Virus record (IMG/VR): IMGVR_UViG_3300027286_000002
DNA length: 64,000 nt
Direction: 5' to 3' (one strand)
From: a virus
Lineage: Duplodnaviria; Caudoviricetes
Shown: positions 1-64,000 of the stretch, piece by piece
Numbering within the stretch: the first letter of the stretch is position 1
Layout: every line of letters starts with the position of its first letter
Program-made: the position numbers and the translations under genes
Notes under the pieces: model-generated
What the model was told of the DNA's origin: nothing
Seen by the model: the letters and a program-made list of their open reading frames with translations, nothing else
The model's database searches: none

Positions 1-1237
1 TGTCATTAAATGCTGTTGCACCTGTTGAGGTTTCACCTGCTTCAACAAGAACAGAAGTACCCCAAACAATCTTATCATCTTTAAGAACCCATGAAACACC
101 TTCGATAAAATTAGAAGATGCACCACCTGATCCATCAGCAACAAGAGAAACAGATTCAACACTAACAACACCTGTGCTTGGAATGTAATCAAATTGATCT
201 CTAAAGCTATTAAAGTAATAAGTTACTGTTAAAGTAGCATCAGTAGCTGGAGCATCTTTCAAAGTAATGCTACCATTAGTACCATCTACACTTGCAGGTG
301 AAATTGTACTGCCATTAAGTTTAACTACAACATCAGTAATATCAGTAGTAGTAATACCACCATTAGTACCATCGACAATAGGATAATGACTTGTAAAGAA
401 AGTCTTGTTTCTTGAAGTAGCTTGATTAACGACAAGACCAAGTTTAGCATTAGCAGATCCACTACCAATAACAATAGAGCCATTAGCATTTAATTGTAAG
501 TTTTCTTGATTAAAGTTATCTGTGTATGTAGATGCCTCTAAAGAACCATAAGATCCTGAATTAATAATAGCAACTACTCTATTAAGATCATCTTCTCTAT
601 TGCCTGTTGAAACTGTTGGCAAAGAAATAGAATATTGAACACCATCTACTAAGAAAACAAAAACATTACTTAAAGCATCAAAATCAAAGCTACCATTTGA
701 GCCAATGATTTCAGCTTGAGTAGTAGTGATTTGAGATGAAATATCTTCATTCTCAATTAAAGTATCTGTTCTCTTAAAAAAATAAGAAACTAAAACAGTA
801 TCTGTGATAGCTGGTGTAGATGCAAGTTCAACAATACCTTTAGCACCATCTACACTTAAAACAACAGTAACTTGACCATTGACATAAGCAGTGACACTAG
901 AACTATCAGTAGCGACTACACCACCACCCGTACCATCAACCATAGGAAATTTTTGAACTTGCACTTTAGTTGCAGTTCCATTGAAATTACCTAAAATTGG
1001 TGTACCATCAGGATTAAATCCTAATACTGCACGACCACTCATATTTTCATTTACAATTCGTTGATCTACAGATGAAGAAGATCCACGAATCATTTGAACT
1101 CCAACAGATTGAATAGTTTCTTTACCTGCACCTAGCAATAAAGGTATTTGACCTGTGAAATTGCTAGATGGTAAAGGTGAATCAAAAACTGTTTGAGTAT
1201 ATACACCGGGCGGTGCATAGCCACCTTGAATAGCCAT
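1..1237 (-). CDS. Tail sheath protein, N-terminal part (runs off the window start; absent from the ORF track)
   Basis: Manual translation from ATG at 1237 (GGAG SD upstream): MAIQGGYAPPGVYTQTVFDSPLPSSNFTGQIPLLLGAG. The Y-x-P-P-G-V-Y start is typical of contractile sheath proteins; frame appears open to base 1. Confidence 0.75.
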   Translation of the reverse strand, partial: MAIQGGYAPPGVYTQTVFDSPLPSSNFTGQIPLLLGAGKETIQSVGVQMIRGSSSSVDQRIVNENMSGRAVLGFNPDGTPILGNFNGTATKVQVQKFPMVDGTGGGVVATDSSSVTAYVNGQVTVVLSVDGAKGIVELASTPAITDTVLVSYFFKRTDTLIENEDISSQITTTQAEIIGSNGSFDFDALSNVFVFLVDGVQYSISLPTVSTGNREDDLNRVVAIINSGSYGSLEASTYTDNFNQENLQLNANGSIVIGSGSANAKLGLVVNQATSRNKTFFTSHYPIVDGTNGGITTTDITDVVVKLNGSTISPASVDGTNGSITLKDAPATDATLTVTYYFNSFRDQFDYIPSTGVVSVESVSLVADGSGGASSNFIEGVSWVLKDDKIVWGTSVLVEAGETSTGATAFND

Positions 1238-1249
1238 AATCTTTTGCTC

Positions 1250-1675
1250 CTATTTTTGTTGGAAATTACATCCAATTTCTTTTCTGACTTGGTTTTTTAT
1301 ATCTCTTTGAGTTTCATGATAATGCTTATCCATTACATATTCATTGTCATATCCAACAACAATATCTAATGGATTGCCTTTTGTTTCTTCAAGTAGCTTT
1401 ACTTTGTCTTTATATCTCATCTTTGCAATTTCCCATTTTCTAATAGAATCTTGCATCAATACTCTTTCAAAGTTCGTATCCAAACTCTCAACACCTGTTG
1501 ATTGTGGTTTTACTTCTTCTACTTGAATTGCATTATATCCAATACTCTTTGTACCTTGTAATGCAGAAAAGGCTTCTTTTCCACAGGATGTACAAGATTG
1601 AGAATTGACATCAGTAGCTACTCTTTTACTAAAAGATAAACCACATGATCTACATTGGAATTTTAAGATAGGCAT
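1250..1675 (-). CDS. FmdB-like zinc-ribbon protein
   Basis: N-terminus MPILKFQCRSCG...CTSCG matches the MP-x-Y/F-x-CxxCG...CxxCG zinc-ribbon pattern. Confidence 0.6.
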   Translation of the reverse strand: MPILKFQCRSCGLSFSKRVATDVNSQSCTSCGKEAFSALQGTKSIGYNAIQVEEVKPQSTGVESLDTNFERVLMQDSIRKWEIAKMRYKDKVKLLEETKGNPLDIVVGYDNEYVMDKHYHETQRDIKNQVRKEIGCNFQQK

Positions 1676-1720
1676 TAAGATTACTCCTCTTTGTCTAATA
1701 ACATTGATTTAATAAATAAA

Positions 1721-2830
1721 TTATTTAAGATCTTGGATTTTATATTTCACCAAACCTGTGTAGCCTACTTGATTTTCTGCATCAGGCAATTCCTTTTCTA
1801 AACTTAATGATTTCCCATAAGACATTAATGGTTCTATCAATGGAATGTGCATAAACCAATCCACCTGCAAGGTTGTAGATACACTCGCTGTGTAAAAATA
1901 ATCATCACCATTTTCATCATACACCTCTTCTGATTCACCACCTAAACTCACTTCATTCATATTGATGCCTCTTGTAGCCAGCTGATCTTTTAATACTGCC
2001 CACATCCACACTGTTGTTCTATCAGCCAAATCTGCTTGCGAATGGACATCTCTTGCTATAATTTCTATTTCTACAGAAACATCCCATCTGCCACCATACT
2101 CTTTATAAATATCATCAGGTTCATCTAAAACAACAATCGCTTGCTGATCACCACCTCTTAACCTGCGACCAAAATAAATTAAAACCCCGGGGATAATCTT
2201 ATGATAGACTTGATCAGGTCTTACATATTTTGGCTCAATCACACCTACCTGCAATTCTGTATATGTGATCTCTATATTTAAACCATTTAATAATTCATTA
2301 GCTAATTCTATCACATCACCATTTAAAGTATAGTCTACACCTTCTACATATCGCATATATGATGGTTTCTCAATAATCCTTAAACTATTTTCCACAGGTG
2401 TACCTAACAATTGGATTTCTGTTGGACTAATAAACACAGGTTCTGTTTCTTTTACTCTTTTATATTTAGTGATGTCTATACGATAAGTTTCATATTGATC
2501 TTCTATTTGAGTAATATCTAAAATATAAATACCTTCATCTGCACGGAATTTTGGATTTTCTTTGACCCACTCAATAGATCCATATTGTAGCTTTTTTGTT
2601 TTAGCTAGATAAACATATCCTCTTACTGTTGTTAAGTAATTATCTGCACTCATCACTACATTATTTGCTCCACCTGTCTTAATCACCATGCCAAATTGTG
2701 GTCTTTGGTCAAAGCTATATTTACCTTGTATATTATTTGCCAATTCAGGATATCTAGGATGATCTGACCAATATTTTCTTAGTTCTTCTATCATGAGATT
2801 GCGAACTTCTAATGTTAAGTAATGAAACAT
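1721..2830 (-). CDS. Putative tail terminator/tail completion protein
   Basis: 369-aa ORF just upstream of the sheath operon, with a beta-rich C-terminal segment (YFYTASVSTTLQVDWFMHIP). Assigned by position and general similarity only. Confidence 0.45.
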   Translation of the reverse strand: MFHYLTLEVRNLMIEELRKYWSDHPRYPELANNIQGKYSFDQRPQFGMVIKTGGANNVVMSADNYLTTVRGYVYLAKTKKLQYGSIEWVKENPKFRADEGIYILDITQIEDQYETYRIDITKYKRVKETEPVFISPTEIQLLGTPVENSLRIIEKPSYMRYVEGVDYTLNGDVIELANELLNGLNIEITYTELQVGVIEPKYVRPDQVYHKIIPGVLIYFGRRLRGGDQQAIVVLDEPDDIYKEYGGRWDVSVEIEIIARDVHSQADLADRTTVWMWAVLKDQLATRGINMNEVSLGGESEEVYDENGDDYFYTASVSTTLQVDWFMHIPLIEPLMSYGKSLSLEKELPDAENQVGYTGLVKYKIQDLK

Positions 2831-2867
2831 TTCTTATTTGCTCCTTTTAAAGATACTTTTAATAACT

Positions 2868-3452: not shown

Positions 3453-3458
3453 TTTCTC

Positions 3459-3494
3459 AATCCTTTTATATAAGCAATCCGATATAAAAGGATT
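3459..3494 (-). promoter_or_regulatory. Perfect 13-bp inverted repeat sequestering the SD of 2868..3452
   Basis: AATCCTTTTATAT-N10-ATATAAAAGGATT; on the minus strand the 3' arm carries AAAGGA just before the ATG. Confidence 0.7.
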
Positions 3495-3500
3495 ATGACC

Positions 3501-3653: not shown

Positions 3654-3684
3654 ATTAAAAAATCCTTTTTGTTGTTGTTGTATA

Positions 3685-4593: not shown

Positions 4594-4600
4594 ACTAAAT

Positions 4601-5568: not shown

Positions 5569-6936
5569 TCATCCTCCATGATTGTGATTTTCCCATACTG
5601 CTGTCCTGCCTCTTAATTCATGATTTGCAGATACACTATCTTTCTCACTCATCATTGGTATCGCTGAATCAGGCTGTGTTGAATATGGTGCATCATTTCT
5701 AGCTGAATATGTATCTCTAATTGTTTGATATGTGTATTTTGTCTTATGCCATAACACAGGCACACCATCCATAGGTACTGAATATCTAATATCTGCTGGC
5801 TCAAAATATCCCAAATTAAAATGCTGTTGTAATACATTTCCTCTTGCATTTGGTCTTCTTACCGGTCCTATTGAATACCTGTCATTATTTTGCTTAACTA
5901 TAAAATCCCTTTGAGATACAATAGGTGAGGGTCCAATATACACTTCATATGAATGCTCTTTTTTCCTACCTTGAGTTGCTTGACTTATTCTTCTTTCTGC
6001 ATCATCAGGTGCAACAATAATATCATAGGGTCCATCATATCCACCTATTAATCCTGTGCCAAAGCACCTAATACATCTTGAATCAGGTTGCTTTCCATAT
6101 TCTAATGTAAACCTATTAAATGCTCCACACTCGCATGGCTGTCCTACTACTTTCTTTAAGAATAATCTTACTCGTTCACCACCTTGCTCTAATGCCCATT
6201 GATTTCTTCTCACACCTTCCCTCCACATCCAATCTACTTTCTCAATCTCAATATCACTAAATGGCTGTGTATAATCTAATGGACTTTCATGCAATGCACT
6301 TGTTAATGGATCTTCTGCCACTGTTGTTACTCTATAATATGTCTTTTTATCTATAATAGAACTAATTATGCCTTCAGGTAAATAAGATAAATAAGAACAA
6401 GTAACAACACTTGTATTCGGATCAAAGGCAAGCTGGATGTCATTCATTAAAGTAATAACATTTGTGGTTGCACCTTGTCTTAATACAATATCACCTGTTT
6501 GACCAAAGACACTAGCAGGATATGCTACTTGTCCATCTATTTTAACAACCACATCTCTATATGAAGTAGAAGGCTCAATCGCACTGCCTATTCTAGCTAT
6601 TGGTCTAGCTGTTCTAAAACGATATGAACCATCTGCATTACTGCCTTTGCTTATCCAATTTGTAATCACTTCATCATAGATCATTTCTGTGATATTTGTA
6701 TCTCTATAAAAGGTAGCAGATATAGGCTGTTGATTTATTCTTTGGTAAGGTCCCCGATCTGATGTATTTGATCTATATATATTAACACCACGAATGATCC
6801 AGCCTTCATTTTCATGAATGAAAGAAGGACTATCCCATCTTAAATCTATTGCACCTTTAAGAAAAGGTGAATTAGCTGATGTGTTTCTAGGTGGCATAGG
6901 ATAAGGTGATCTTGAATATTCCCAACCTGCTGGCAT
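5569..6936 (-). CDS. Putative head-closure/neck protein with N-terminal FN3-like and Zn-binding segments
   Basis: IDLRWD...GVNIYRS...PYQRIN resembles FN3; CECG...CIRCFGTGLIGGY resembles a neck-protein Zn motif. Confidence 0.5.
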   Translation of the reverse strand: MPAGWEYSRSPYPMPPRNTSANSPFLKGAIDLRWDSPSFIHENEGWIIRGVNIYRSNTSDRGPYQRINQQPISATFYRDTNITEMIYDEVITNWISKGSNADGSYRFRTARPIARIGSAIEPSTSYRDVVVKIDGQVAYPASVFGQTGDIVLRQGATTNVITLMNDIQLAFDPNTSVVTCSYLSYLPEGIISSIIDKKTYYRVTTVAEDPLTSALHESPLDYTQPFSDIEIEKVDWMWREGVRRNQWALEQGGERVRLFLKKVVGQPCECGAFNRFTLEYGKQPDSRCIRCFGTGLIGGYDGPYDIIVAPDDAERRISQATQGRKKEHSYEVYIGPSPIVSQRDFIVKQNNDRYSIGPVRRPNARGNVLQQHFNLGYFEPADIRYSVPMDGVPVLWHKTKYTYQTIRDTYSARNDAPYSTQPDSAIPMMSEKDSVSANHELRGRTAVWENHNHGG

Positions 6937-8730: not shown

Positions 8731-8796
8731 ATTAAATTTTTTATTTTAAATATAAATGTTCTTTGTAGCTAAACTTATTATGTGAAAGGCATACAG

Positions 8797-9825
8797 ATGA
8801 GTAAAGACATTCATGTTTCACACCAATGTCCACATTACATTAGGTTTGAATCCTATACTTTAGATAATATCACTGATGTTGTCACTAGATCACCTATCAA
8901 TGGTTCTAGTCTTTTTACCATCACTAAAAATAATATTACCATAAACCAAGAAGGTCTTTACTCACCTGCTGAAATTATCTTCCCTGCTAATGCTCCATAT
9001 AAAATCCTAAATCCTAACTACACTTTTGTTTATCAAAATGTATCTTATCCTGTGAAATTTGATACAGGTCTTTTATCTGCATCTCAAATCCAAAACACTC
9101 TTATTAAATACCTGCCTATGAATAAAGTAGAAGTCAATCTTGTAAACCAATCTATTCAGATAAAAGATAAATCCACAGGTCTATCTTCAAGACTAGAAAT
9201 ACAAGGTGATTTAAATAAGTTTGGATTTACTTATGAGAAATTTAAAGCACAAGGTAAACAAGTGCATACAGGCTGGAAACTTTTTAAAAGAGATGATGGC
9301 TTAGGCTATTTCATTCGCTTTAATGAAAATGTAAAAGGTAATTATCTTATTTCATACACTACAGAAAAGAATTATTGTAATCGATGTGCAAGCACAGGCA
9401 TTGAAAATGATTTAAGATTTAATGAGTATGGTGAAATTAAACAAGTGGAAAAACACGATCTACTTTATCAGCAGGTTGCCAAAGTTTGCCTTACTAAAAT
9501 TAATACTAATCCTCAACACTCTTGGTATGGTACTAATGCTTTTGATTTTGTAGGTGCTAAACAAGGCAACCTAGCTAAACTTAGCATTCAAGAATCTGTA
9601 AGACAAGCACTCAATCAGCATATCAATATTCAAAATCAAGTTGGTAAAATACAAAAGCTATCTTTAGAAGAACAAATTGCATCTGTTCGGAAAATTGATG
9701 TGCAACAAGTTCCTAATACTAATAATGCCTACCTTGTTGATATTGGTCTTGTTAGCAGAGCAAATACACCTGTTAATCTTAACATTGTGTTTGCAGTCCC
9801 CGGCTCTATTGACTTAACAAATTGA
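8797..9825 (+). CDS. Baseplate wedge protein with C-terminal gp25/GPW-like domain
   Basis: C-terminal NDLRFNEYGEI...LLYQQVAKVCLT...HSWYGT...IQESVRQAL resembles gp25 and precedes baseplate J. Start revised to ATG 8797 (GAAAGG SD). Confidence 0.65.
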   Translation: MSKDIHVSHQCPHYIRFESYTLDNITDVVTRSPINGSSLFTITKNNITINQEGLYSPAEIIFPANAPYKILNPNYTFVYQNVSYPVKFDTGLLSASQIQNTLIKYLPMNKVEVNLVNQSIQIKDKSTGLSSRLEIQGDLNKFGFTYEKFKAQGKQVHTGWKLFKRDDGLGYFIRFNENVKGNYLISYTTEKNYCNRCASTGIENDLRFNEYGEIKQVEKHDLLYQQVAKVCLTKINTNPQHSWYGTNAFDFVGAKQGNLAKLSIQESVRQALNQHINIQNQVGKIQKLSLEEQIASVRKIDVQQVPNTNNAYLVDIGLVSRANTPVNLNIVFAVPGSIDLTN

Positions 9826-9838: not shown

Positions 9839-12800
9839 ATGATACAAATTATTTCACCTAGTGGTTCTTTACTAGATAGTCCTGCTAACTATTCCACTAC
9901 TCAAAAAGCTATCTTTATTAAAGGTATTACTGATGATCCAAGCAATCTTAGTATCACTATTGAAAACCAAACCTATACAGGCATGGATATTTTCTTTGAT
10001 GGTAATTACTTTACCTTTCCTAATCCTGCTCTTAGTCCTGATGGTCTTATTCTCTATAATGGTAATAACAATCTTATTCTTAATCTTTCTACTACTGAAA
10101 CCTTTTATCTTAATGTTATCCAACCTATCGTCAATCTCTACCAACCACCTGCTCAACCACAAGGCATCTATATTGAAAGACTTGCACAAGATGTTCTTAT
10201 TAAATTCCAACATACAGACAGTGAAGTCAAATATTATAACTTGTATGCTAGTGTTTCTTCAGGTGGTGGCATCAATGGTTATCAAAAAATTAACTTTGAA
10301 CCTTTAGATCCTATTAGCTATGGCATAGGTAAAGAAGTTTTAACTACCATTGCAGATGAAACCTTTAATGCAAATACTCAAACTGCTGATCCTTTATATG
10401 CTAAATTAAATTTCATCCAAACTGATGGTTCTACTAATTTAGCCAGCGATGTCATTTTTAATAGTGAAGTCAGTGAAGCTATTAAACGATTGAGATTGAC
10501 TGCTACTTTATCTGCTATTGATATCCAAACTGAAATCGTCTTTAAACATAATAGACAAGCTACTCAAAATTCTACACCACCTACTATTCAATTTGGTGCT
10601 TTCGCTTCTCTTTCTAATGAAAATGTTCTTTACTATGTTGCCACTGCTGTTAAAGTTGTTAATGGTACTGAAATTGAAAGTGCATATTCTTTAGAAGTAG
10701 TAGGCAAGCCTGTCAATATTAATCAATCTAATGTTTCTTTACCTGTAGTCAATCGTCAAACCTTAACTACAGAAATGATTACTACCATCCATAAATTACA
10801 ACCTGATGCTTTAGTGAACCCGGGCTCTGTTACTAGAGATGTCATTATTGATCCTTTTGTTAATGAAATGGAAAGAACTAGATTCTTATTAGACTTTACC
10901 TACCGTGCTATGTCTTTTACTACTTTACTCACTATTGATGATCCTAGAAACACAGGTAAAAGTATTGCAGTCAGTAATTCAAATTATAAAACTGCTCTTG
11001 GACAAGCTCTTTTCTTTAGTGAACAAAATAGAGTACAAGCAGTTATTGATTCAGCCTTTGATAAACTTGCATATAACTTTGGCATTAAAAGAAGATTAGG
11101 TAGTCGTGCAATTGGTGAAGTAGTTTTCTTTGTTAAGACTGCTCCTACTAGAACTATCAATATTCCTTCATACACTACGATTTATGCAGGCAGTATTCCT
11201 TTTCAAACTACACAATTCGCTAGAATTTCAATAGATACATTATCTTCTTTTTATGATCCTGTTAAAGATAGATATGCAGTTTATGTACCTGTGCAAGCAT
11301 TAAATATAGGTATTGCAGGCAATGTCACTAGCAACCAAATCAGAAACTCTTCTATTAATGGTCTTTCTGTGAATAATGAAAATCCTACCTTTGGTGGATC
11401 AGAAGTAGAATCAAATTTAGATTTAAGTTCAAGAGCAATTAATACTCTTGCTAGTGTAGATACAGGTACTAAATCAGGTATTGAAAGAATAGCTAGTGCA
11501 ACTGCTGGTGTTACTGAAGTTTTTGTCGCAGGTGCTGAATCACCTTATCAATTTAGAGGTGATGGCAAAGTTGATGTGTGGATTCGTGGTGTGTCTTTAG
11601 CTACTGCTACTGATTTATATGCTCCAAATTTCCAAACACATAAAGATAGTCTTTTCATTCCTATTGCTGAAGGCATCTATCAATTTAAATTAGGTGATCT
11701 CAATTTGTCTTTATATAAAATGATAGATAACCAAACATTAGGATATGGTTTAAAAAATGCCACAACAGGTGAATGGTTTGATCTCACTAACCATACTATA
11801 ACAAATGACAATATTGTTATTTTAGATACTAGCTTAACACAGCCTGATTACAATATCACAGATGTTATCATAGGTGATTGGCAAGAAAATATTAGTGAAA
11901 TCATTTATCTCACTAGACAGCCTGTTGAAAGCATCTCTACTTTAATAGATGAAAATAATGTAGAATATGCACAAGGTACTGATTATCTTTTTAAGAAAAC
12001 ACAAGATCCTTTACTTGAAGGATATTCCACCAAAGCTAAAGATAATATCTTAATCAATAATGGTGCTATCACTTCTGATTTCTATTCCACAAGCGAAGTG
12101 TTTAGCTTTATTGGTTTTTATCCATATCAATTGACTAAAAAAGGTGTAGATGCTTTAAGCATCCAGCTTAGACTTGATTCGAGTGGTGATGGTGAAACAG
12201 GCTATACTTTCTATAATTCATCTTATGTTGCTAATCCTGATTTCATTATTGAAACTACAGATGAAGGATATACTACTTTAACTAGAACATCTAATTCTGA
12301 CATCCCTGAAAATGTCACAGTCAAAGTCAATTATAGCTATCTCTTAAATCTTGAAGTCACTTATTCATATAATCAAGTACTGCAAAATGTTCAATCTCAA
12401 ATTAATAACTCAAAACATTTGACTGCTGATATACTTGTTAAACAGTGCATTCCCTGTCCTATAGATGTAAAAGCAAATATTGTTATCCGAAAAGGCTATC
12501 AAGTTAGCCAAATCGATCTTGCTATTAGAAACAATGTACAAAATTATATTTCTTATCTTAATCTAGGTGCTAACCTAAGAGTGAGTGATATTGTAAGAGT
12601 GCTGGATAATGCAGATGGTGTTGCTTTTATTGACTTGCCTTTAACACAGCTTTCTTTTTCAGTAAATACTCTTGTCATTAGAGAAGAAATCATACCTAAT
12701 AACTCATACACTCAAATTGTATCTTTAACTACAGGTGTTGCAGTCGCATGGCTTATTGATGTAAACCTAGCACAACCTGCATCTACAGATGGTGGTGAAA

Positions 12801-22683: not shown

Positions 22684-25600
22684 ATGGCTGATAATTTTGG
22701 AACAGAAGTCAGTAGAGTTCTCAATAATCAAAACACTAAATTTACACATCTCATTTGGCAATCAGGTAAACCACCTTTGGATTCTGAATTAAACTTTGTT
22801 GGACAGCTTGCCAATGATTCTTTAATTGATGCAATTAAACAAACTACACCTAGTGGTTTTCTTGCTGATCCTATTAGTGCGATTGATTTTGAATGTAATC
22901 CTTTAGATAGCAATCAGTTCAGATTAAATTCTATTGATGCTATTGTTAATGGTATGCCTATTCGTATTCGTGGCTGTAATACGAATAGTGAAACCTCTAA
23001 CATCATTAAATTATCTGCACCACCTGCCACAGGCAATCGTGTAGATTTTGTTTTCTTAGAAGTTTGGCGATCTTTAGTTAGTCCAAATCCTTCTACTGAT
23101 TATAAACCTAGTGCTATTACTTTCTATAAATATGGCAACACTCAATTTGGTGGTACTAATATTACAGATGATCTTATTGATAATGACATAGGATTTGAAA
23201 CCACTAAACGAGTTCAAATTCAATATCGTTTAAGAGTAGAAACTAATATTGATATTGACACTTATCCACAAGGCTTAGGTGATCCATCTGTTTTTGGTCA
23301 AGGTAATTCTATTAATCCTGTGACAAGTGCAGTATATACTAATATGGCAAGCGAAGGTGATCCATCCTGCTGGAAAGCATCATCTGTTGATTTTGAATCA
23401 ACAGATAATTATTCCTATGCTATTCCTATTTGTGCTGTCTTTAGACGATCTACTTCTTCTTATATTGCTGTTCTTAATGGTTCATCACCTACACATAATG
23501 GTGCATCTGTAAGATCATCATCTACACCTAAAACCTTAACACAAGCTATTTTATCTGCAAGTTTGACTTCATCTGCTACTACTTTAAATTTAGGCAGTTC
23601 TATTGTAGGCAGTGGTTTAGATGAAGGTAATTCTGTAGGTGATTATCTAGTTTTAAACACAGGCATTAATAAAGAGATTGTTTTGATCTCTAGTGTGAAT
23701 GTAGGCACAGGTGCTATTGTTATTGTTCGTGGTCAATTAGGTACTCAAGCTAAATCTCATCTAGCATCTACACAAGTGAGTTTATATAATGCAAGACCTG
23801 ATGGTTTATATGCAGATCAAATTCATGAACAAGATATTTTAGATTTGATGAATAGCATTTCTTTAACAGGATTTGATTATTCACAGCTATTGCAAAATGC
23901 AGTAAATGACTTGATCACAAATAATTTAAGAACAACTTGGAAATCAAGTGCTACAGGCAGTGATAGTAAAGGTATTACTTTGGCTCAAGTGGATGTTATT
24001 GGTAATCCTAATACAACAAGACCATATACTGAAATTTTAGATGCTCCAAATGGTATTAGAACAGTATGGTCAGATAGTGCAGTGGTTGAGAAAAATGTAA
24101 ATATCATTATTGATCCAGCTACAGCTTTAAATGATGATGGTACTACTGTTGGATATTTTGATAGTGGCTTAACAGACAATTGGACGATTAGTGCAGATTT
24201 AAAACCAACAGGTTTTATGCCTAGTGTAGATATTGGTGGTGGTACATATCAACAAGCATGGTCAAGTGGTGCTGTCATTTTCTTAAACTTAGGTGGTCTT
24301 GATGGTCAAAGTGGTGCAAGAAAAGGTTTTAAGAATAATCAAAAAGCAGTTCGTTTCTTAACTGAATCAGAGGAAGATTTAAAGCTATATCTTATTAATG
24401 ATAATGGATATACCGATCCATTCACCAAAAAAACTCTTTTGCCTGTACTATCAACTTTTGCAGGTTATCCATCTAAAGTAGAAATCTTTGGTGGTCTTGT
24501 ACACTCATCTTTAAAAGTTACAGGTATTTCAACAGTCTTAGCTGATCTTCAAATTAAAAGAATTTCTAATAGTGCAGATGTCAATCTTGAATATTATTAT
24601 GAAATTGATTTAGGTGTAAATCTTGCAAGTTTACTTGATGGTACTACTAAAGTTTTAGGTAATGAATCAGTAGCTGATCTTCTTACAAACTATGGTAAAG
24701 ATAATACAGGCTTTAGTTCTGAATTATTTGCTATTGTTTATGGATCACCTAAAACACAAAACAACCAATCCTTTCAAATTATAGGCATGGGAAAAGATGG
24801 TTTAACTTCTAGTGAAACTGATGCTAGTGGTTTAAATACAAATTCTACCATTCGCTTACTTCGTTTAAATGGTGCTTTCTCTAATTGGACAGAAGATACA
24901 GATGGCAATACTTTAACAGTAGAAATCAGAACTAGAAGAACTTATGCTTTTGATGGTACTACTGCTACTGATCCTTCTTTATGTATCGTCTTGCCTTATC
25001 ATACTGTTTATGAAAATAATGCAGTATCTCAAATTTATGCTACTGAAGGCACATACTCTACATCTAAACTTTTAATTAATGCTACTTTACAATATGCACC
25101 CGGTCACAGTGGTCTTGCTCGTTCACCTGATCAAATCCATAATGTGTCTTTAAGAAATAAAAGCACAGCTTATCTTAGAAATGCTATTAGTGATCTTGAT
25201 GCTACTCAAACTATTTTTGAAACAGACCTTGTTAAATATGATGCCAATACTCATATTCAATTATGGAATGCTTTAGCATCTAAAAATGCTGATCCTAGTC
25301 CTACAGGTAATCTTAATACTTTTGGTGGCAGTGTTATTGGTGGTGCAGATATTGATCGTAATAATGAAATCTTTGCTGATCCAAATTCTAAAACTTTAAT
25401 TCTTAAACCTTTTAAGCAACATAATCTATTATTGCAATCCTTCCGTGCAAGTACATCTACTGATTTGCTTTTAAGTCAATATTATCAAGATGGTGTCACT
25501 GATAAAGATGGTGCAGGCATCTTCACAGGTGCTGGATTGCCTCAAGATTATTTTGAATTTCCACCTATGCACCTACCTAAATTTGGTAGACAGGATATTC

Positions 25601-28325: not shown

Positions 28326-28362
28326 TACCTAAACACTAAAGATAAATTTTTATTGCAAGTTC
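28326..28362 (-). promoter_or_regulatory. Conserved promoter-like motif copy upstream of the sspB-like gene
   Basis: GAACTTGCAATA-N12-TAGTGTT-TAGGTA on the minus strand, overlapping the ligase stop codon. Confidence 0.75.
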
Positions 28363-38263: not shown

Positions 38264-38265
38264 GA

Positions 38266-44700: not shown

Positions 44701-47555
44701 TATTCATTTTCAAAATCAAACTTGCTTTCGTACATCTTAACAAATTCGGTATATCCAATTTCTTTTGCACGACTATCAATCTTTTTTTCTACATTCCCAG
44801 CTAATCCATCTGCTACATCTTCTGTTAAAAACTTTCTCACTTCACTTAAAAAGTTTCCTCTTAAAGCATCAGGACCCACAATTAAAAACTTTGCATCCTT
44901 TTCTTTTTTTGATCCCAATTGCATTGCAGTCACACCTACTAAGGTTTTACCTACACCTGTGTCTAATGCCATCACACCTTTTAAATCATTTGCATCTAAC
45001 CAAGCTAATGCCTCAACTTGCTTATTGTTAAATACAATGTTATCTTTAAATCCACCTATTGATACAGGTTTATATTTTTCTAAATTCTGTGCATTTAATG
45101 CTTTGTCTTTCTGTAAGACAATACCATAATACTTTTCTAATTCTTCATGTGCTTTTCTAGTCATCAAACAAGATCCTAAAGAATCTTTGATTGACTCATA
45201 ATCATCACCATCAAAATAATAAGTTACTCTTGTACCACTAATATTTTCAATTTCTTCAACTGATGCTCTTGTCTTCTTTAAATTCTTTAAAGCACCTCTT
45301 TCACCTTTAAAAGCATCACCTTTTGGTAATGCAATTACAAACCTGCCTTTAAACCATGTGATATATGGTTCTTCCAAAACATTATAATTGATCTTAATAT
45401 CACCACTCTCTACTTTAATACCTTCATAGATATTAATAATTTTACCATTTGCTCCAACAGAATAACATTTATTTTCGCTTGTTAATCTTCCTGTTGCATT
45501 TGCTAAATCTTCCACAGAGAAACCTTTCATTGGTCCCCTTGTGATAATATCTTTAGTAACACCTTTAATAGTAGTAGTCTTTACTTTGACCCAATGTGCA
45601 AATCTTAAAGGATTTGATGCCTTTGGTGTTGTATCATCAGATAATTCTACTTCTCTTTCTTCGCCCGGAAGTGCATCTACTACTGAATCAGGTAAATGAT
45701 CTATCACAATAGGTGGAATATTCATATCCAAATCTTCTGTTAATGGAATAGGATTTCCAATCTCATCAAATTTAAGTGTACCATCTTTTTTGGTTTCATA
45801 TTTAGGTACAGGCTCACCATTTTTAAAAATTACATTTCCTAATTCATCTTTTTCATAAATCACTCTTCTCTTGATATGCTTAAAGATTAATTGCTTTTGT
45901 TGTACTTCTTCACCATTTTGGTTTGTTACTGTAATCGTTCTGATTTCAGGAAAAGCATCTCTTAAAACCTTTGACTTAATTTGGACATCAAATTTCTTTT
46001 GTTGATAAACTTCATATGCAGATAAACCATTTTCGGATTCAATCACACCTAGCTTTTCACTATAAATGGTATGTGCTTTATCTAAAAAGTTCTTTTGTTC
46101 TTCTTTGATAGCTACCTTTAAAGTTTTACCTTTGACAATAGAATTTGGTTTTTCAAGTTCTTTAAGCTGTCCATATAATTGCTTTACTGCTCGCTTATTG
46201 ATTTGCATATCTGAATCAATAATTTCTTTTTCCATATTATATTCATCTAAAACATATTTAAATGAAGGCACATCCACTAAAGACACTAATTTTTCAAACA
46301 TCTCTTTATATGGATCTTGATCAATATCCCAACCTTGACTCAGAAAATAGTTTTGGCAAATTTGAGATAGCTTAAGATTACTATCAATCTTAAATTGCTT
46401 AAATTTTGTGATCAATGGTTTTAAAGATAGACCAATTGGTACAATATTGTTTTTTGCTATCATATATTCCATAAGATTAGCAAAGGTCAAATCCATATCT
46501 GTTTGAGATAAAATCTTTTTAATTACATCTTCTGTTGTACCTACGACTGATGTACTTAATAATTTGGCACTTAACTTCTTTTTAGCTAATTGATCCATTT
46601 TTACTAAGTAATCTTCTTCTTTGACTTCCGACATCGTATCAATGTCTAAATCAACAGGCAAATTCATTGTCTGTAAAAAGTCTAGTTTTCTTTTTTTAAT
46701 AACACCTGCAATCGTAGGCATATTTTTTGGATCATTTAAATATAAATCAAGACGATCACCATCTTCTAATTTAACTTCTGTAAATGCTCCGATTCCTGAT
46801 AACTTAGTCTTTAATTGAGCTTTTTCATACTCAACATATTTCTTCTTAATCGTATTTGCATTTTCTGCAATCACAACAGCAGGTATTGCTCCTGATACTT
46901 CTTTAAACACATCGTATTTTACACCTGTGCTTGTTACTTTTTGTGTGATCTCATATTGCAAACCTTTTGCTTTGCAAATTAAAGCAATCCATCCTGATAA
47001 TGACTTCAAACTTTCTTTGAAAAATGCTTGCTTACCTAAACGATTTGCCACATCAAAAGCACCTGCCATTAAAACAACTTTAGCTTTCTTAAAGACTTCT
47101 TCTTGTGAATTACTTGTTGGATTTCCTTGTCTCACAATGAACTCTAAATATCCTTCCCATACCTTTTGTAAATTCGTTTCAATGAAAGCATCTACTTTTT
47201 GAATATTTACTTTCAAGTCAATCCAAAGGTTTTTCAATTCCTCATCTTGTTCTTTTTCTCTGAAAAATCCCAAATAATACAGATATGCTTTTTCCATATC
47301 TTCATCTAAAGACCACTTAACTAAAGACTTATCTTTCGCTACCTGTGATACTCGATCATTAATATAATCGATTAAGTAATCTTCAAACTCTACCAATTGC
47401 TGGTAGTGATTAAAAACATAATTGCCATTTCCTTCGATCTTGCCTCTAGTAGTATCTCTACTAGACAATTGTGGAACTTTAAAAGCTAATAGAAAATTAG
47501 ATTTAAATGGATTGGCACTGCGATTTGGATTGTTTATCAATTTCACAACAGGCAT
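41709..47555 (-). CDS. Giant SNF2-family helicase fused to a GNAT-like domain (1948 aa)
   Basis: SF2 motifs ALDTGVGKT, IFDEVN, LLTAS, YARGFNLQ and QRTARAFRQGQ; downstream ELVT...IGYYIWPKFGYD resembles GNAT motif B. Confidence 0.75.
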   Translation of the reverse strand: MPVVKLINNPNRSANPFKSNFLLAFKVPQLSSRDTTRGKIEGNGNYVFNHYQQLVEFEDYLIDYINDRVSQVAKDKSLVKWSLDEDMEKAYLYYLGFFREKEQDEELKNLWIDLKVNIQKVDAFIETNLQKVWEGYLEFIVRQGNPTSNSQEEVFKKAKVVLMAGAFDVANRLGKQAFFKESLKSLSGWIALICKAKGLQYEITQKVTSTGVKYDVFKEVSGAIPAVVIAENANTIKKKYVEYEKAQLKTKLSGIGAFTEVKLEDGDRLDLYLNDPKNMPTIAGVIKKRKLDFLQTMNLPVDLDIDTMSEVKEEDYLVKMDQLAKKKLSAKLLSTSVVGTTEDVIKKILSQTDMDLTFANLMEYMIAKNNIVPIGLSLKPLITKFKQFKIDSNLKLSQICQNYFLSQGWDIDQDPYKEMFEKLVSLVDVPSFKYVLDEYNMEKEIIDSDMQINKRAVKQLYGQLKELEKPNSIVKGKTLKVAIKEEQKNFLDKAHTIYSEKLGVIESENGLSAYEVYQQKKFDVQIKSKVLRDAFPEIRTITVTNQNGEEVQQKQLIFKHIKRRVIYEKDELGNVIFKNGEPVPKYETKKDGTLKFDEIGNPIPLTEDLDMNIPPIVIDHLPDSVVDALPGEEREVELSDDTTPKASNPLRFAHWVKVKTTTIKGVTKDIITRGPMKGFSVEDLANATGRLTSENKCYSVGANGKIINIYEGIKVESGDIKINYNVLEEPYITWFKGRFVIALPKGDAFKGERGALKNLKKTRASVEEIENISGTRVTYYFDGDDYESIKDSLGSCLMTRKAHEELEKYYGIVLQKDKALNAQNLEKYKPVSIGGFKDNIVFNNKQVEALAWLDANDLKGVMALDTGVGKTLVGVTAMQLGSKKEKDAKFLIVGPDALRGNFLSEVRKFLTEDVADGLAGNVEKKIDSRAKEIGYTEFVKMYESKFDFENEYYCMIFDEVNEALTGKKAQAISGVKHKRKILLTASALETSPMDLFRFVSLSTGNPIEPAKEKAFADKYAINIGGKFVGIKPEARHQFNIWLKQNAYFADKMDVDYEAVGKKQLKPLVKLNTAVNMPPEVGKAYVEVASGIKNQLKEMKDRYSALLTQNAEDISVTLQKEKDIAVGNLKDKIALLHLFSLNPHKAMAKYNKMKGIEPKTYTFVNPKVEQATALATKFLQESKRTIYFTEDNDVAKQTVISISMRHRTKIHALCLSNMIVFYQAGVPLKKGRATKKTNVENFKINRLTEEQIEAIERERMSKTGAVAKPSVKNMPVDMTWAIKIVKNFIAENDQVVTMVCNSSYARGFNLQKFKAVVHLDRDGWDSEEIKQRTARAFRQGQENEVLEVMVDAVAPNDEKGKPTVSIDELRGLVHETDQKFFNDIIKKSGAIKLSENYSAIEHGVVSDKMTTPNLEEFTRAILPTREASNEIDEYFKNKKEDPVKHTVLDPNRFNHPSIKTILQQLGTTVLTPELKEKLDVSGISGVLNVTPAEITSSVSVPDVKHIRLKGDWIASQIRAVNSDSVKNCEFFTTTCAPKSIGNKALFSQLVACKKAGKKELVTDGGGSFNSFDPETGLGKKGQGHNPMIGYYIWPKFGYDATVLILTLQYPPLQQNFDLVLKFLNPTNLVSPLPAGNDAQSQLVFQEELKNYIEKVEEHNASLKTKAVDVKVDKESVLDLISKLKNPDTKGLNSQQKHQIVTFLRDGAGWWLLKLAKCYYLVSEMTDVYKQQTYSLLDLYAITFTDSEGNVVKAGEELWKFFGSTTKLTLSLDDNSKSYKHLTKYVDAKVKEAGFETLEEYLSAPTDPFDTKSTECWFLFFRDQILTQLTKSEKSTLVKTYMKDLKEVLVKANMNERVAILDSLKMFKENNPELSSMKLASKKYADEDQEVSSESLMGMLAVQDDALFTTITKELENEKTLENTQKEIAVLRGDLKPVLNPFDLSKKGNK

Positions 47556-47624: not shown

Positions 47625-48005
47625 TTAAATTTTCTCAATCTCATTCGTAATAGATAACTTGTCTGTACGATCCATCATAAACCATTCCACACTCACAGGT
47701 TCAAATTGTGCAAACTTTGCAAACACTGTTTCTTTGTCAAATTCCTTGCATGAATATACATCCAATTGAATTAAGCCGGGCACTGCTTCATCCCACACAT
47801 GAATCGCAATATGTGATGTTTCAATAATAGTCACTGCTGTTAAACCTCTATTGCCTGCCTTGTCAAGATACACAGCATGGGGTCCACTTAAAATCTTCAT
47901 GTCAATCGCTTGGATCAAATCCTTTAACCATGATTCAATCACATCTGTTGCCATAGGTGGCTTATTTACATAAGCACGGATTACAATATGTTGGTGTTGT
48001 AGCAT
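47625..48005 (-). CDS. speD: Pyruvoyl-dependent S-adenosylmethionine decarboxylase-like proenzyme
   Basis: GLTAVTIIETSHIAIHVWDE...LDVYSC matches the class 1b SpeD/SpeH autocleavage signature (x-SH-I-x-I-H-x-W). Confidence 0.85.
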   Translation of the reverse strand: MLQHQHIVIRAYVNKPPMATDVIESWLKDLIQAIDMKILSGPHAVYLDKAGNRGLTAVTIIETSHIAIHVWDEAVPGLIQLDVYSCKEFDKETVFAKFAQFEPVSVEWFMMDRTDKLSITNEIEKI

Positions 48006-51591: not shown

Positions 51592-53170
51592 CCTCTAGTA
51601 AGCCATTGAAAATATCTTTGAGTTCTGTATCAGATACTCCTTCTATCTTATCTGATTCTTCATCGTTTTTCAGTCTTTTACCTAAAACATTTTCAATTAA
51701 ATCCATTTTACTTGCTAAGGCTTTCATTACACGATCATCAATAGTCTTTGGACAAACTAAATGATAACAAAATACACGATCATGAATACTACCGATACGA
51801 ATCATTCTACCAATGATTTGAAGATAATCACCTGCACTCCATGGGGAGTCATAAAAGATAACTGCTTTAGCTAACTGTAAATTAATACCTTCTGCCGCCG
51901 CCATTGTAATCAAGACGACCTTTACATCAGAATTTTCATCTTGAAATGCCTCTTGTGATTTCTTTCTCTCATCATCCTTTTCACCACCTGTAATTCTTAC
52001 ACTCTTAATTTTCTTTGCTGTTAGTTCTCTTTCCAAAACATCTATCATCTTCCTAAACCTTGAAAAGATAATTACCTTTTCTCCATCTAGTTCATCTTCT
52101 AGTAACTCAAATAAAGCATCCATTTTGCCACTATCACCTGTCGCATCTACAAGTTCTAAATGGTTTACAATCTGTTGACAATACATAACTGCTGTGAGTT
52201 TTGTTACTTCCTTTTGTTTGATCTCACCTGATTCAGCATCATATTTTTCTAATAGACCACTTAATGCTTCTTTATATTTTGATCTTTGTTGATCAGATAA
52301 TTCACATTCAATTCTCTTAGTAGTCAATGGTGGCAATTCACTCGCTACTTCATGTTTTGGTCTACCTACAAAGAAAGGATCAATCTTTTCTTTAAATGCT
52401 TCAATATCAGATTTCCTATGACCTACTACAAACTTAATTCTCTTTCTACCTATTTGCTTATCTACACATACACAGTAATTAGACATGAATACATTCTTGC
52501 TAGGCATAAGTCCGGGGACAGTTACTTTATAGATTGCCCATGCTTCCATAAGTCTATTTTTAATAATAGTAGCTGATAAAGACCATACCTTTTCTGCACT
52601 ACCAGATAAATGAGAACAAACTTGATGGATTTGAGAAGTATCGTTTTTAAAAGCAGTTGCCTCGTCAAAGACCATAACATTACCTGTGATAGGTTGAATA
52701 ATATCAAAATCAATCACACCTGTTCTATAACCTAAAATAAGAACTTTAGTAGTAGTACAGGCAAAGTAAGCATCATAAACCTTTTGTCTTTTCTTTTTAT
52801 CTCCACTGACAACAAAACAAGAGATACTACCATTGGTAAATTTCTCAAATTCACTTGCCCATTGGTTTAGAGCAGATTTAGTAGTCATAATGACAGCAGG
52901 CATATCAGGTCTTTTTTCCCATACATAGCATAGAGATGCTATGGTTTGAATCGTTTTACCTAACCCCGTGTCATCGCCAAGTACAAATCGTGGCATTGCA
53001 AGTAAATGCAGAATGCCTTGTAATTGATAGTTTCTTAATGTTAAAGGTTTGCCATTTGCCAAATGAGTTCTCAAGAATGAGTTTGCAGGCATTTTGATTT
53101 CTTGTTTAACACGAACTTCTCTTAATTTTTCAATAGTAGCAAGTAGCTTTGGATCTTTTAAATAATTCAT
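51572..53170 (-). CDS. SNF2-family helicase
   Basis: LRNYQ, LGDDTGLGKT, VFDEA, LSAT, AAAEGINLQ and QIIGRMIRIG; start revised to ATG 53170. Confidence 0.9.
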   Translation of the reverse strand: MNYLKDPKLLATIEKLREVRVKQEIKMPANSFLRTHLANGKPLTLRNYQLQGILHLLAMPRFVLGDDTGLGKTIQTIASLCYVWEKRPDMPAVIMTTKSALNQWASEFEKFTNGSISCFVVSGDKKKRQKVYDAYFACTTTKVLILGYRTGVIDFDIIQPITGNVMVFDEATAFKNDTSQIHQVCSHLSGSAEKVWSLSATIIKNRLMEAWAIYKVTVPGLMPSKNVFMSNYCVCVDKQIGRKRIKFVVGHRKSDIEAFKEKIDPFFVGRPKHEVASELPPLTTKRIECELSDQQRSKYKEALSGLLEKYDAESGEIKQKEVTKLTAVMYCQQIVNHLELVDATGDSGKMDALFELLEDELDGEKVIIFSRFRKMIDVLERELTAKKIKSVRITGGEKDDERKKSQEAFQDENSDVKVVLITMAAAEGINLQLAKAVIFYDSPWSAGDYLQIIGRMIRIGSIHDRVFCYHLVCPKTIDDRVMKALASKMDLIENVLGKRLKNDEESDKIEGVSDTELKDIFNGLLEDAKDNG

Positions 53171-53242
53171 TTTTAAGTAGTCATCTTTCAAAGTGATAAT
53201 GAATGATCTACTTATAAGATATTTATCTATGCTTTACATCTA

Positions 53243-54251: not shown

Positions 54252-55025
54252 ATGTCTAAGAATCCAGATCAAAATCCACAAAATGTGGGTGGCTTTGATA
54301 TGCAAGGTACTAGCGAACTTTACAAATTTAATACATCACCAAATACTCGTGTTGCTCTTTCTCAAAAGGTAAGAATCCTAGCACCTACTTATGGTAAAAC
54401 AGGACAAACTGCTTTAAAGAAATATCAGTTAGGTGTTGTAGAAACTTTTTCTTATGAAGGTAATAGTAGATCTACAGAAGCTAGAAGAGGTATTGGTTTT
54501 GGTGATCAGATTGCAGAACTTGTACCCGGGCTCACTGATCCACCAACCATTTCTTTCACTCGTGCTTTATTTTATTTATCTAATGCTTTCCAAACGATTG
54601 GTTTTGCAGGTGGTGTAGACGGACCCGTAAGAAGTGTTAAGCATACTCGCTGGCCCTTTGATGTTGAAGAACAACTTGTGTTTAGTGATATTGCAGATAA
54701 TGAATCAGATGGTACAGATGGCAATACATATACTCAAGGTATTGTTAATGTAGATTACTCTGCTCAAAATGTTACTGAACCTGATGTCTCAGCATTTAGA
54801 TATTCTAAAAAAGTACACAAAGCTATTTTAACTTATTTTGAAACCTGTTGGTTGCACTCTATTGATCACTCTGTTGATATTAGTTCTGCACATATTATGG
54901 AAAATGTTGCTTGTGGTGTTACAGATGTACACGATGGTCTTTCTACTTATGGTGAGTTCTTATCTACAGGTAATAATCCTTATCTTGGTCAAGTTGCATC
55001 TAAACGATTCCCTGCATCTCGTTGA
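54252..55025 (+). CDS. Tail tube protein
   Basis: First gene of the tube-chaperone-tape measure block; LGVVETF...RRGIGFGDQIAELVPG...TISFTR...WPFD...YFETCW is tube-like. Confidence 0.7.
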   Translation: MSKNPDQNPQNVGGFDMQGTSELYKFNTSPNTRVALSQKVRILAPTYGKTGQTALKKYQLGVVETFSYEGNSRSTEARRGIGFGDQIAELVPGLTDPPTISFTRALFYLSNAFQTIGFAGGVDGPVRSVKHTRWPFDVEEQLVFSDIADNESDGTDGNTYTQGIVNVDYSAQNVTEPDVSAFRYSKKVHKAILTYFETCWLHSIDHSVDISSAHIMENVACGVTDVHDGLSTYGEFLSTGNNPYLGQVASKRFPASR

Positions 55026-60522: not shown

Positions 60523-60544
60523 TAGAAAGAAAGGATATGTTTAA

Positions 60545-61141: not shown

Positions 61142-61144
61142 AAT

Positions 61145-62212: not shown

Positions 62213-62213
62213 C

Positions 62214-64000
62214 ATGAGTACTACTACTAAAGGCACTAGCTTTGTTAATACTTCAAGAATTGAAAATAGACCTTATGCAGGATCATGGAAACCTAATTTT
62301 AGAAAAGTACATACATGGTCACCCGATGCTCTTGTCTATATTAATGGTGATACTGCTTTAATAGGCTGTCAAGAATGTAAAAATAAAATAGATTTCCAAC
62401 CTTTTATTACATCTGTTAATGTTGAAGCAGGTAATACATCTTCATCATCATCATCTTCTATTAATTTTTCTATACCTAAACATCATGGTGATAGCATCTT
62501 TAAAGATGGTACTTTTATTTTATGTGTAGGCTTAGAGATCAATGTCTATTATCGTGGTTTTTTTAATGTCCAGAATTTAGTTGAATCAGAAATCATTGAT
62601 TATGGTGATGAAGAATATGATTTAGCTGATCTACAAATGAAACCTTATTATCCTGTCTTTCATGGTGTTGTTACAAGTGTAAATTACACATATAGTGGTG
62701 GCTTTTATTCAGGCAGTTTATCGTGTAATGGTTTATTACATTTTTGGCAATATCAACATATCATCACACAATCAGCATCACTTGAATCTGTACCTAATGC
62801 TCAAATGCAACCTACAGGTCATGTGTTCACAGGCTGGACACCACATCAAATTATTAAATATCTATTTAAAGATCGTGGTGGGGCTCAAAAAAATGATTTA
62901 GGTTATGTAATCAATGGTGTTAGTAATTTATCTTCTCAAGGTGGTGATGAACTTTGGCAACAAGCATTACAATATTGGGAAACTAGATTTTCTCAAGGTC
63001 TTTATAATTTAAGAATGTATGGTGCATCAGGCAATCTTCTTACTAATGGTGCAGATGCTTATATAGATCAGCTTATTGTTAATAGTGGTTCTTTAAGTCC
63101 TAGATCTCAAAATGGTTTACCTACAATGAACTCTCAACAAAGAGTAGATAACACTCTTGATCCTAGAGTTCTTAGACAATATGATTTAATTGAAGTACCT
63201 TTGACAGGTACAGACACAGAACAAATACAACCTTTTACTTTAGATGTTGGCAGTGTTGGTCAATTTGATTCTTATCAATCTACTTATGAAACTAAATTAG
63301 GTATTGCAGATACTGTCGTTGAAAAAACAAATTGGGAATTTTTTCAAGATGTAGATGGTGATCTTGTTTTTAAACCACCTATGTTTAATCTTAATGTTAA
63401 AGGTAATCGTGTCTATACTATTAAACCTGAAGATATTGTAGATTTAGGTTTTACTCAAAAAGAACCTAATGCTACCTATGTTGTCTGTAAAGGTAGTATG
63501 TTTGGCAATATGACAGGTCTTGTAGATAACCAACAAATTGCACCTCAAGCACAATATGTAGATTATCGTTTAGTTGCTAAATTTGGATGGCGAGAAAATC
63601 AATTTGATGCCACTCATATTAAAGATCCTAAATCTGCTTTCTATATGGCATCTGCTAAACTTGATCTTCTTAATAAAGATGTTGAAGGCTGTACACTCAC
63701 TATTCCTTTAAGACCTGAATTAAAAGCAGGTTATCCTATCTATATTGAACATATAGATTGCTTTTATTATGTAGAAGCTGTTAGTCATTCTTTTTCTTTT
63801 GGTGGTGATTGCACTACTTCTTTAACTCTTGTTTGCAGAAGAAAGAAATTTATCCTGCCCGGCAGTTCTAACACTTCTTATGCACAAGACAGTAGTAAAG
63901 CTGTCGATCTAGCTAATATCTCTCAGCCTAATAAATATCTCAATTCTTTAGACACGGAAGGCAATGTTCGTGTCTGTGGTTTTCCTAATGTAGTTATGGC
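62214..64000 (+). CDS. Baseplate hub (gp27/late control D-like) protein, runs off the window end (absent from the ORF track)
   Basis: Manual translation from ATG 62214 (MSTTTKGTSF...) appears open to the end; contains EFFQDVDGDLVFKPP and LTIPLRPELKAGYPIYI...YYVEAVSHSF...TTSLTL. Confidence 0.7.
   Translation, partial: MSTTTKGTSFVNTSRIENRPYAGSWKPNFRKVHTWSPDALVYINGDTALIGCQECKNKIDFQPFITSVNVEAGNTSSSSSSSINFSIPKHHGDSIFKDGTFILCVGLEINVYYRGFFNVQNLVESEIIDYGDEEYDLADLQMKPYYPVFHGVVTSVNYTYSGGFYSGSLSCNGLLHFWQYQHIITQSASLESVPNAQMQPTGHVFTGWTPHQIIKYLFKDRGGAQKNDLGYVINGVSNLSSQGGDELWQQALQYWETRFSQGLYNLRMYGASGNLLTNGADAYIDQLIVNSGSLSPRSQNGLPTMNSQQRVDNTLDPRVLRQYDLIEVPLTGTDTEQIQPFTLDVGSVGQFDSYQSTYETKLGIADTVVEKTNWEFFQDVDGDLVFKPPMFNLNVKGNRVYTIKPEDIVDLGFTQKEPNATYVVCKGSMFGNMTGLVDNQQIAPQAQYVDYRLVAKFGWRENQFDATHIKDPKSAFYMASAKLDLLNKDVEGCTLTIPLRPELKAGYPIYIEHIDCFYYVEAVSHSFSFGGDCTTSLTLVCRRKKFILPGSSNTSYAQDSSKAVDLANISQPNKYLNSLDTEGNVRVCGFPNVVM

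Follow-up and report, generated by a model that had tools for sequence, protein, structure and literature searches.

The 64,000-nucleotide window analysed here (the whole stretch of DNA presented) corresponds to positions 84,765 to 148,764, read on the reverse strand, of G000, a single virus record of 195,689 bp with 32% guanine plus cytosine (GC) that is classed as linear in IMG/VR. The source of the window is an uncultured jumbo phage, and the phage functions encoded in it include DnaB-like and SNF2 helicases, an NAD-dependent ligase, a Baseplate_J protein and a baseplate-wedge-like protein. The subject of this analysis is the pentanucleotide CCWGG (CCAGG or CCTGG; W, A or T), which is missing from the window, together with the 11 proline-glycine (Pro-Gly) codon pairs of the window, all of which are spelled CCS-GGN (S, C or G) with a proline codon that is rare elsewhere in the genome. 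When the genes of G000 were called by a greedy longest-open-reading-frame (ORF) rule, 204 genes were obtained and 94% of the contig was coding.

When the 5.8-kb helicase gene was compared with a phage collection using megablast, no near-identical record was observed, and relatives were found through their proteins instead. The closest record in the phage collection is an uncultured 485-kb phage (55% amino-acid identity in SNF2), and about 30 relatives of G000 are present in IMG/VR. The sister phage G001, which keeps 91 CCWGG sites, has a complete genome of 316,221 bp that is collinear with G000. The two share 81% nucleotide identity across the alignable 71% of G000, and 70% amino-acid identity. 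In the SNF2 tree, G000 and G001 are sisters (support 99/98) and G002 to G004 are their outgroup (100/100). G005 is a distant relative on a separate branch of 43% GC.

Expected counts were obtained from base composition (Bernoulli), from a maximal-order Markov model and from synonymous-codon shuffles (for the window, 200 rounds over 54 complete genes). CCWGG was counted zero times in the window on either strand, as the earlier note had claimed, against 28.6 sites expected by the Bernoulli model, 19.6 by the Markov model and 15.4 +/- 2.8 by synonymous shuffling (minimum 9). In the whole contig a single site was found against 87 (Bernoulli), 59.5 (Markov) and 48.1 +/- 4.7 (shuffle, minimum 38). 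This site, at G000:77475 and thus outside the window, is a correction to the site-free picture. CCSGG is found in the window as 14 overlapping matches at 11 loci, and 37 times in the contig against a Bernoulli expectation of 41. Because the CCSGG count is near the expectation from composition, the avoidance is W-specific.

The proline codons were also analysed. In G000 proline is normally written CCT (1380) or CCA (749), and CCC (73) and CCG (42) are rare. Each of the 11 Pro-Gly pairs in the window lies in frame in a long ORF and is written with CCC (nine pairs) or CCG (two pairs), so the description in the earlier note was accurate on both codon use and the pairs themselves (Table 1). Among the 29 Pro-Gly pairs of the contig, the proline codon is CCC in 17 and CCG in 12, and never CCA or CCT; the chance of 29 CCS codons in 29 at a background of 5.1% is about 4e-38. 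Neither multiple CCWGG sites nor common use of CCC or CCG before all residues was seen in the CCWGG and CCSGG counts and the proline codon table, the two codons being rare before every residue other than glycine.

Table 1 Pro-Gly codon pairs and CCGG in the window, and counts of avoided words in the whole G000 contig (aa, amino acids; counts are observed vs expected where two values are given)
Feature	Position in window (strand)	Gene or count	Spelling in relatives
CCAGG/CCTGG	1..64000	none in whole window, both strands	
Pro-Gly CCC-GGT	1205..1210 (-)	1682-aa protein crossing window start, g152	G001 CCA-GGT, G005 CCC-GGA
Pro-Gly CCC-GGG	2186..2191 (-)	369-aa ORF 1721-2830, g150	G001 CCT-GGT, G004 CCA-GGT
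Pro-Gly CCC-GGC	9799..9804 (+)	347-aa baseplate-wedge-like ORF 8782-9825, g140	G001 CCT-GGT, G003 CCA-GGT
Pro-Gly CCG-GGC	10820..10825 (+)	1089-aa Baseplate_J protein 9839-13108, g139	G001 CCT-GGT, G003 CCA-GGC
Pro-Gly CCC-GGT	25099..25104 (+)	1714-aa ORF 22684-27828, g133	G001 CCT-GGA
Pro-Gly CCC-GGT	32047..32052 (-)	826-aa ORF 31999-34479, g127	G001 CCT-GGA
Pro-Gly CCG-GGC	45663..45668 (-)	1948-aa helicase-like ORF 41709-47555, g113	G001 CCT-GGT
Pro-Gly CCC-GGC	47775..47780 (-)	126-aa S-adenosylmethionine-decarboxylase-like ORF 47625-48005, g112	G001 CCT-GGT
Pro-Gly CCC-GGA	52511..52516 (-)	SNF2 helicase 51572-53191, g106	G001 CCT-GGT; G002, G003, G004 CCA-GGT
Pro-Gly CCC-GGG	54525..54530 (+)	257-aa ORF 54252-55025, g103	G001 to G004 CCW-GGN; G005 CCC-GGA
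Pro-Gly CCC-GGC	63858..63863 (+)	1523-aa ORF crossing window end, g97	G001 to G004 CCW-GGT
Sole CCGG outside Pro-Gly CCSGG	5862..5865	12 CCGG counted in window, 11 inside CCSGG	
ACGT in G000		0 vs 578 (Bernoulli), 218 (shuffle)	
GCGC in G000		0 vs 76	
CGCG in G000		0 vs 25	
ACGC/GCGT in G000		1 vs 234	
GCWGC in G000		1 vs 87 (Bernoulli), 188 (Markov)	
GGCC in G000		6 vs 82	
ATGCAT in G000		0 vs 68	
RCATGY, GAATTC, ACTAGT, AAGCTT, GGATCC, GGTACC in G000		0, 1, 1, 3, 0, 0, respectively	
ACTGG/CCAGT (BsrI-type word) in G000		3 vs 219	

The depletion acts on DNA and is independent of the reading frame. When CCWGG was counted per reading frame in G000, 0, 1 and 0 sites were observed against 25.1, 10.7 and 12.7 expected, and CCSGG in the Pro-Gly frame was found 29 times against 3.9 expected. 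A codon ending in CC stands before Trp (TGG) or Arg (AGG) in one case only, and where CAG or CTG is followed by a codon beginning with G, the preceding codon never ends in C. The intergenic DNA (11.3 kb) has no CCWGG either (2.5 expected).

The changes in G000 were read site by site against its relatives. Twenty-seven of the 29 G000 Pro-Gly pairs align to G001; 26 of these 27 are Pro-Gly there as well, and all 26 are written CCW-GGN. In the outgroups G002 to G004, the orthologous Pro-Gly pairs use CCW in 18 of 18 cases. Since both the sister and the outgroups spell CCW, the W-to-S changes are derived in G000 and occurred at no fewer than 26 separate sites. When the 42 G001 CCWGG sites in aligned DNA were followed into G000, CCSGG was found at 26 and CTTGG at one, and the rest were assorted, several of these replacements turning Pro-Gly into Pro-Ala, Ala-Gly or similar. 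Products of deamination are not in excess in G000 (CTTGG/CCAAG 226 vs 273 expected; CTAGG/CCTAG 132 vs 133 expected). The earlier note had favoured selection acting on the DNA site over deamination, and the depletion in all frames, the W-to-S replacements and the outgroup polarity all agree with it.

In coding sequences, the observed and shuffle-expected CCWGG counts are 1/47.8 in G000, 92/106 in G001, 44/40 in G004 and 0/56 in G005. Neither G001 nor any of the three outgroup contigs shows CCWGG depletion. The Pro-Gly pairs of G005 are CCS in 15 of 15 cases, including all five orthologous pairs. The loss of CCWGG in the G005 lineage is a second, independent origin, and the two losses are convergent.

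CCGG is itself avoided in G000 wherever it is avoidable. The contig contains 31 CCGG in total, of which 29 lie inside Pro-Gly CCSGG and two elsewhere, against about 90 expected (Bernoulli). Pro-Gly is a double bind because CCS-GGN creates CCGG, which is also avoided. The respelling with CCS that the earlier note described is thus used at all remaining pairs but is not free of cost. In G001, CCGG (5/183, observed/expected) and CCSGG (2/57) are both scarce; most of the phage family likewise avoids both, and Pro-Gly is written CCW. The two sisters therefore rank the CCWGG and CCGG pressures in opposite order, G000 accepting CCSGG and G001 accepting CCWGG. The glycine codon after proline in G000 is GGC or GGG in 16 of 29 pairs, vs 18% overall. 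This drift away from GGT is likely due to CGGT/ACCG being a further avoided word.

The effect extends to the dipeptide itself. The observed/expected ratio of Pro-Gly is 0.23 in G000, 0.25 in G005 and 0.47 in G001; the outgroups G002 to G004 range from 0.61 to 0.70, and two unrelated phage contigs lie near 0.9. Of 48 aligned G001 Pro-Gly pairs, 22 are not Pro-Gly in G000, and the reverse is the case for 1 of 27 (binomial p = 6e-6). An outgroup was alignable at eight such positions, three of which are losses in G000 and five of which look like gains in G001. The surviving Pro-Gly pairs of G000 are conserved in 26 of 27 cases (96%), vs 65% for control dipeptides (p = 3e-4). Ala-Ala is found 13 times in the G000 proteome against 202 expected (0.06), and 12 of the 13 are written GCS-GCN (e.g. 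window 51893-51904). This spelling agrees with the avoidance of GCWGC. In G001, which avoids GCWGC as G000 does, the value is 31/290 (0.11), and in relatives that do not avoid GCWGC it is 0.54 to 0.83. Gly-Pro stands at 0.27 of expectation in G000.

Every synonymous spelling of these three dipeptides carries some targeted site. Pro-Gly gives CCWGG or CCGG, Ala-Ala gives GCWGC or a GCSGC containing CCGC/CGGC, and Gly-Pro gives GGCC or GGWCC. CCWGG depletion and Pro-Gly depletion are correlated among 20 relatives (Spearman 0.81), a value that is partly circular and drawn from phylogenetically related rows, and to which we give little weight. We are somewhat inclined to conclude that restriction pressure edited the phage proteins and not only their codons, purging Pro-Gly, Ala-Ala and Gly-Pro and leaving only conserved and indispensable copies. 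Nothing specific was found in the literature on dipeptide-level effects of site avoidance or on codon effects of CCWGG in phages, which is not proof of absence.

Selection against CCWGG, as proposed in the earlier note, was supported; however, CCWGG is no special case. It belongs to a set of about 20 or more short restriction-type sites, most of them palindromes, that G000 avoids, and when the contig was filtered for minimal avoided words, 57 words were obtained. The RCGY group (ACGT, GCGC and ACGC/GCGT) is represented in G000 by one site against about 528 by synonymous shuffles, and other CpG contexts persist (TCGA 120, CCGA 148; CpG odds 0.28). We know of no restriction enzyme of RCGY specificity. 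In Pro-Val pairs, CCT-GTN is used 205 times and CCA-GTN twice, and CCTGT/ACAGG is in excess (609 vs 356). Some words are enriched relative to base composition (GATC 890/578, TGCA 1141/578, TGSCA 546/185), although their counts are close to, or a little under, those predicted by the Markov model.

Within the clade, the words that are avoided change rapidly. GATATC is absent from G001 (0/119, observed/expected) and present in G000 (30/77), whereas ACTGG (400/414 in G001, 3/217 in G000) and CTGCAG (75/51 and 9/31) show the opposite. Beside GATATC, TCTAGA (0/72) and GASTC (12/184) are avoidances private to G001. Such turnover among close relatives fits changing restriction-modification repertoires of the hosts.

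We consider it likely that an enzyme of the host population recognising CCWGG selected for the removal of this site from G000. The selecting agent would be a host restriction endonuclease specific for CCWGG, and its putative Dcm/EcoRII type is suggested solely by the sequence of the site. Phage DNA would be exposed to the restriction enzymes of the host population, one of which would cut unmodified CCWGG; genomes with fewer sites would escape more frequently, and sites would be removed one by one. For sites straddling codons in other ways (NCC-WGG, NNC-CWG-GNN), ordinary synonymous changes would be enough. Pro-Gly (CCN-GGN) always reads CCNGG, and its sole synonymous exit would be a rare CCC or CCG codon, giving CCSGG and with it CCGG. 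Conserved and apparently indispensable Pro-Gly pairs would then be kept as CCS-GGN, and dispensable ones would have disappeared or never arisen. Loss of Type II sites is an established way for phages to counter restriction, according to section 63 of PMC12707154 and PMC4687349.

Several points weigh against this explanation. G000 is about 63% complete (CheckV), and its unseen part may hold more CCWGG sites; the gene annotation used for the shuffles is not curated. The NAD-dependent DNA ligase (window 28361-30193, -) has its closest match among 185,579 species genomes in a metagenome-assembled genome (MAG) of Bradymonadia (8.6 Mb, 63% GC; 45% identity), which may be a weak lead to a host or donor, and 165 kb of this MAG avoids none of these sites. 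In addition, every CCWGG contains CCAG/CTGG, on one strand or the other, and the true motif could be wider or different. The observed/expected counts in G000 are 1/48 for CCAGG, 3/219 for CCAGT, 36/200 for CCAGA and 153/185 for CCAGC.

These last counts speak for an asymmetric CCAG/CTGG word (CCAGD, CCAGK) as the avoided motif, recognised by an enzyme of Type IIS, IIG or III, with the loss of CCWGG as a by-product; both CCWGG-free lineages (G000 and G005) are also without ACTGG/CCAGT. However, G004 avoids CCAGT (19/86) and not CCWGG (44/40), several relatives have no CCAGT yet keep CCWGG, and in G005 CCAGA persists (67/115) although both CCWGG and CCAGT are missing. Since CCAGT, CCAGA and CCWGG vary independently, at least two specificities are needed, and separate specificities are the simpler reading. 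We consider a single asymmetric word improbable.

The danger may also have come from methylation, with a Dcm-type mark placed in one host and a modification-dependent (Type IV/MspJI-like) nuclease met in the next, so that progeny without the site would go unmarked. Orphan methylases of the Dcm type are widespread, as are modification-dependent nucleases, and the same frame-independent, W-specific depletion is predicted. No direct evidence for such a mark was found, and the 6-bp palindromes avoided together with CCWGG (GAATTC, AAGCTT, ATGCAT, GGTACC) resemble classical Type II targets. By sequence alone this possibility is inseparable from a host enzyme cutting unmodified CCWGG, and we regard it as doubtful.

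It is very unlikely that the phage, or an element travelling with it, makes a CCWGG nuclease against host or competitor DNA and is spared by having no site. A GC-rich host would be full of targets (725 CCWGG per 165 kb in the Bradymonadia MAG), and among the genes specific to the G000 lineage are one for a LAGLIDADG endonuclease and one for an MmeI/Type ISP-like protein. These enzymes, however, read long or asymmetric sites and not CCWGG. No match to the EcoRII-C and MvaI/BcnI families (PF09019, PF15515) was found in the contig, a weak absence as the control genomes gave none either, and no unmodified phage is known to use a self-sparing nuclease in this way.

Mutational decay, in which 5-methylcytosine at CCWGG deaminates to T with no selection, would fit the low CpG odds (0.28) and the raised TG/CA (1.22) of G000 but is hardly credible, as the replacements are mainly central W-to-S changes with CTWGG at 1 of 42, the products CTWGG and CCWAG are at or below expectation, no C5-methylase (PF00145) match was found in the contig, which is about 63% complete, and decay would not put rare codons exactly at conserved Pro-Gly pairs. 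A translational codon-pair bias, in which CCW-GGN is poorly translated for reasons unrelated to DNA sites, would explain why the signal is most visible in one codon pair; it can practically be set aside, since the other two frames are emptied too and G001, with near-identical codon usage, writes 84 of its 85 Pro-Gly pairs as CCW-GGN.

The single CCWGG left in the contig falls within a 128-aa ORF, where it is written Pro(CCC)-Trp(TGG). This ORF and an adjoining 315-aa beta-class methylase make up a 1.6-kb segment (G000:76151-77738) that is missing from G001, which has 158 bp at this place. Motif IV of the methylase is SPPY, the form usual in N4-cytosine methylases, and its closest solved relative is M.RsrI. 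The segment follows the family-wide avoidances (RCGY 0 vs 9.1 expected), and its probable donor is a related phage free of CCWGG selection. EcoRII needs two sites for cutting, according to the passage of PMC12707154 that cites Kruger et al. 1988, and one may speculate that a lone residual site would be harmless to such a two-site enzyme.

We also considered the SPPY methylase as a shield of CCSGG/CCGG that permitted the W-to-S switch and found no support for it. Two viral relatives of the methylase were found, and the closest one (52% identity) lies on a contig whose CCSGG count is 0/23. CCGG outside Pro-Gly is also still avoided in G000. The G000 contig has two N6/N4-type methylase genes.

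Some further genes of G000 were characterized. A 1004-aa protein (G000:166739-169753) that is not in G001 combines N6_Mtase and Eco57I/MmeI-type methylase domains with a Type ISP C-terminal specificity domain. It could be either a Type IIG/IIL-like enzyme carried by the phage or a methylase resembling PglX of BREX. The LAGLIDADG homing endonuclease (G000:17470-18420) has a C-terminal helix-turn-helix domain and is likewise not in G001. Two G000-specific genes, one with a weak partial QueC-like match (G000:35182-35982; E = 3e-7, about 60 residues) and one with a strong nucleoside 2-deoxyribosyltransferase-like match (G000:40318-40827; E = 5e-32), may have to do with the modification of nucleotides or of DNA bases. 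In the window, the 126-aa gene at 47625-48005 (-) encodes an S-adenosylmethionine decarboxylase domain (PF02675, E = 7e-13). Three tandem paralogues of about 290 aa each (window 37391-40010, +) match nothing in Pfam or PHROG and lack a counterpart in G001. For a 1711-aa surface-protein gene, no genome relatives, no NCBIfam family and weak Atlas leads only were obtained.

The comparison of the sisters and outgroups amounts to a natural experiment, in which each of 26 conserved Pro-Gly pairs exchanged a common codon for a rare one, independently of the others; this solution recurs in a second lineage. Less familiar features are the two-site double bind, solved in opposite ways by the sisters, and the measurable loss of the dipeptide. 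If restriction pressure did edit the proteins as well as the codons, sets of avoided sites could be read as a fast-evolving record of which restriction enzymes an uncultured host possesses, and might aid host assignment. Lists of avoided sites from metagenomic phages could also flag candidate new specificities, e.g. RCGY, which is essentially absent in G000.

When compared with known systems, the word avoided by G000 is the exact recognition site of EcoRII/Dcm, MvaI, BstNI and PspGI, with CCSGG tolerated. Enzymes of the HpaII/MspI type recognise CCGG and those of the BcnI/NciI type CCSGG, and MvaI and BcnI form a related pair distinguished by the central base of their sites. G000 and G001 resemble this contrast, as they differ only in the central base that is tolerated at Pro-Gly. 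Unlike a simple swap, however, G000 still avoids CCGG outside Pro-Gly, which is a ranking of two pressures. Staphylococcus phage K and its type are large virulent phages without GATC (Sau3AI) sites; G000 is similar in that a host-restriction-type site is gone, but GATC is over-represented in it (890 vs 578), and its absent sites are cytosine-rich or CpG-containing and many more in number. Avoidance of restriction sites in phage genomes has been described (Rusinov et al. 2015, PMC4687349), and Rusinov et al. 2018 (PMC6286503), as cited in PMC12707154, reported restriction-site (palindrome) avoidance in virulent phage genomes. As in these cases, short Type II-type sites are strongly under-represented in G000 and synonymous codons do most of the work. 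Unlike them, about 20 or more sites are absent or almost so across roughly 200 kb of G000 (ACGT 0/578), the sister genome lets the changes be read per site and polarised, and the effect reaches the amino acids, with Pro-Gly, Gly-Pro and Ala-Ala depleted. The phenomenon is textbook restriction-site avoidance by a phage, here unusually extreme and well resolved.

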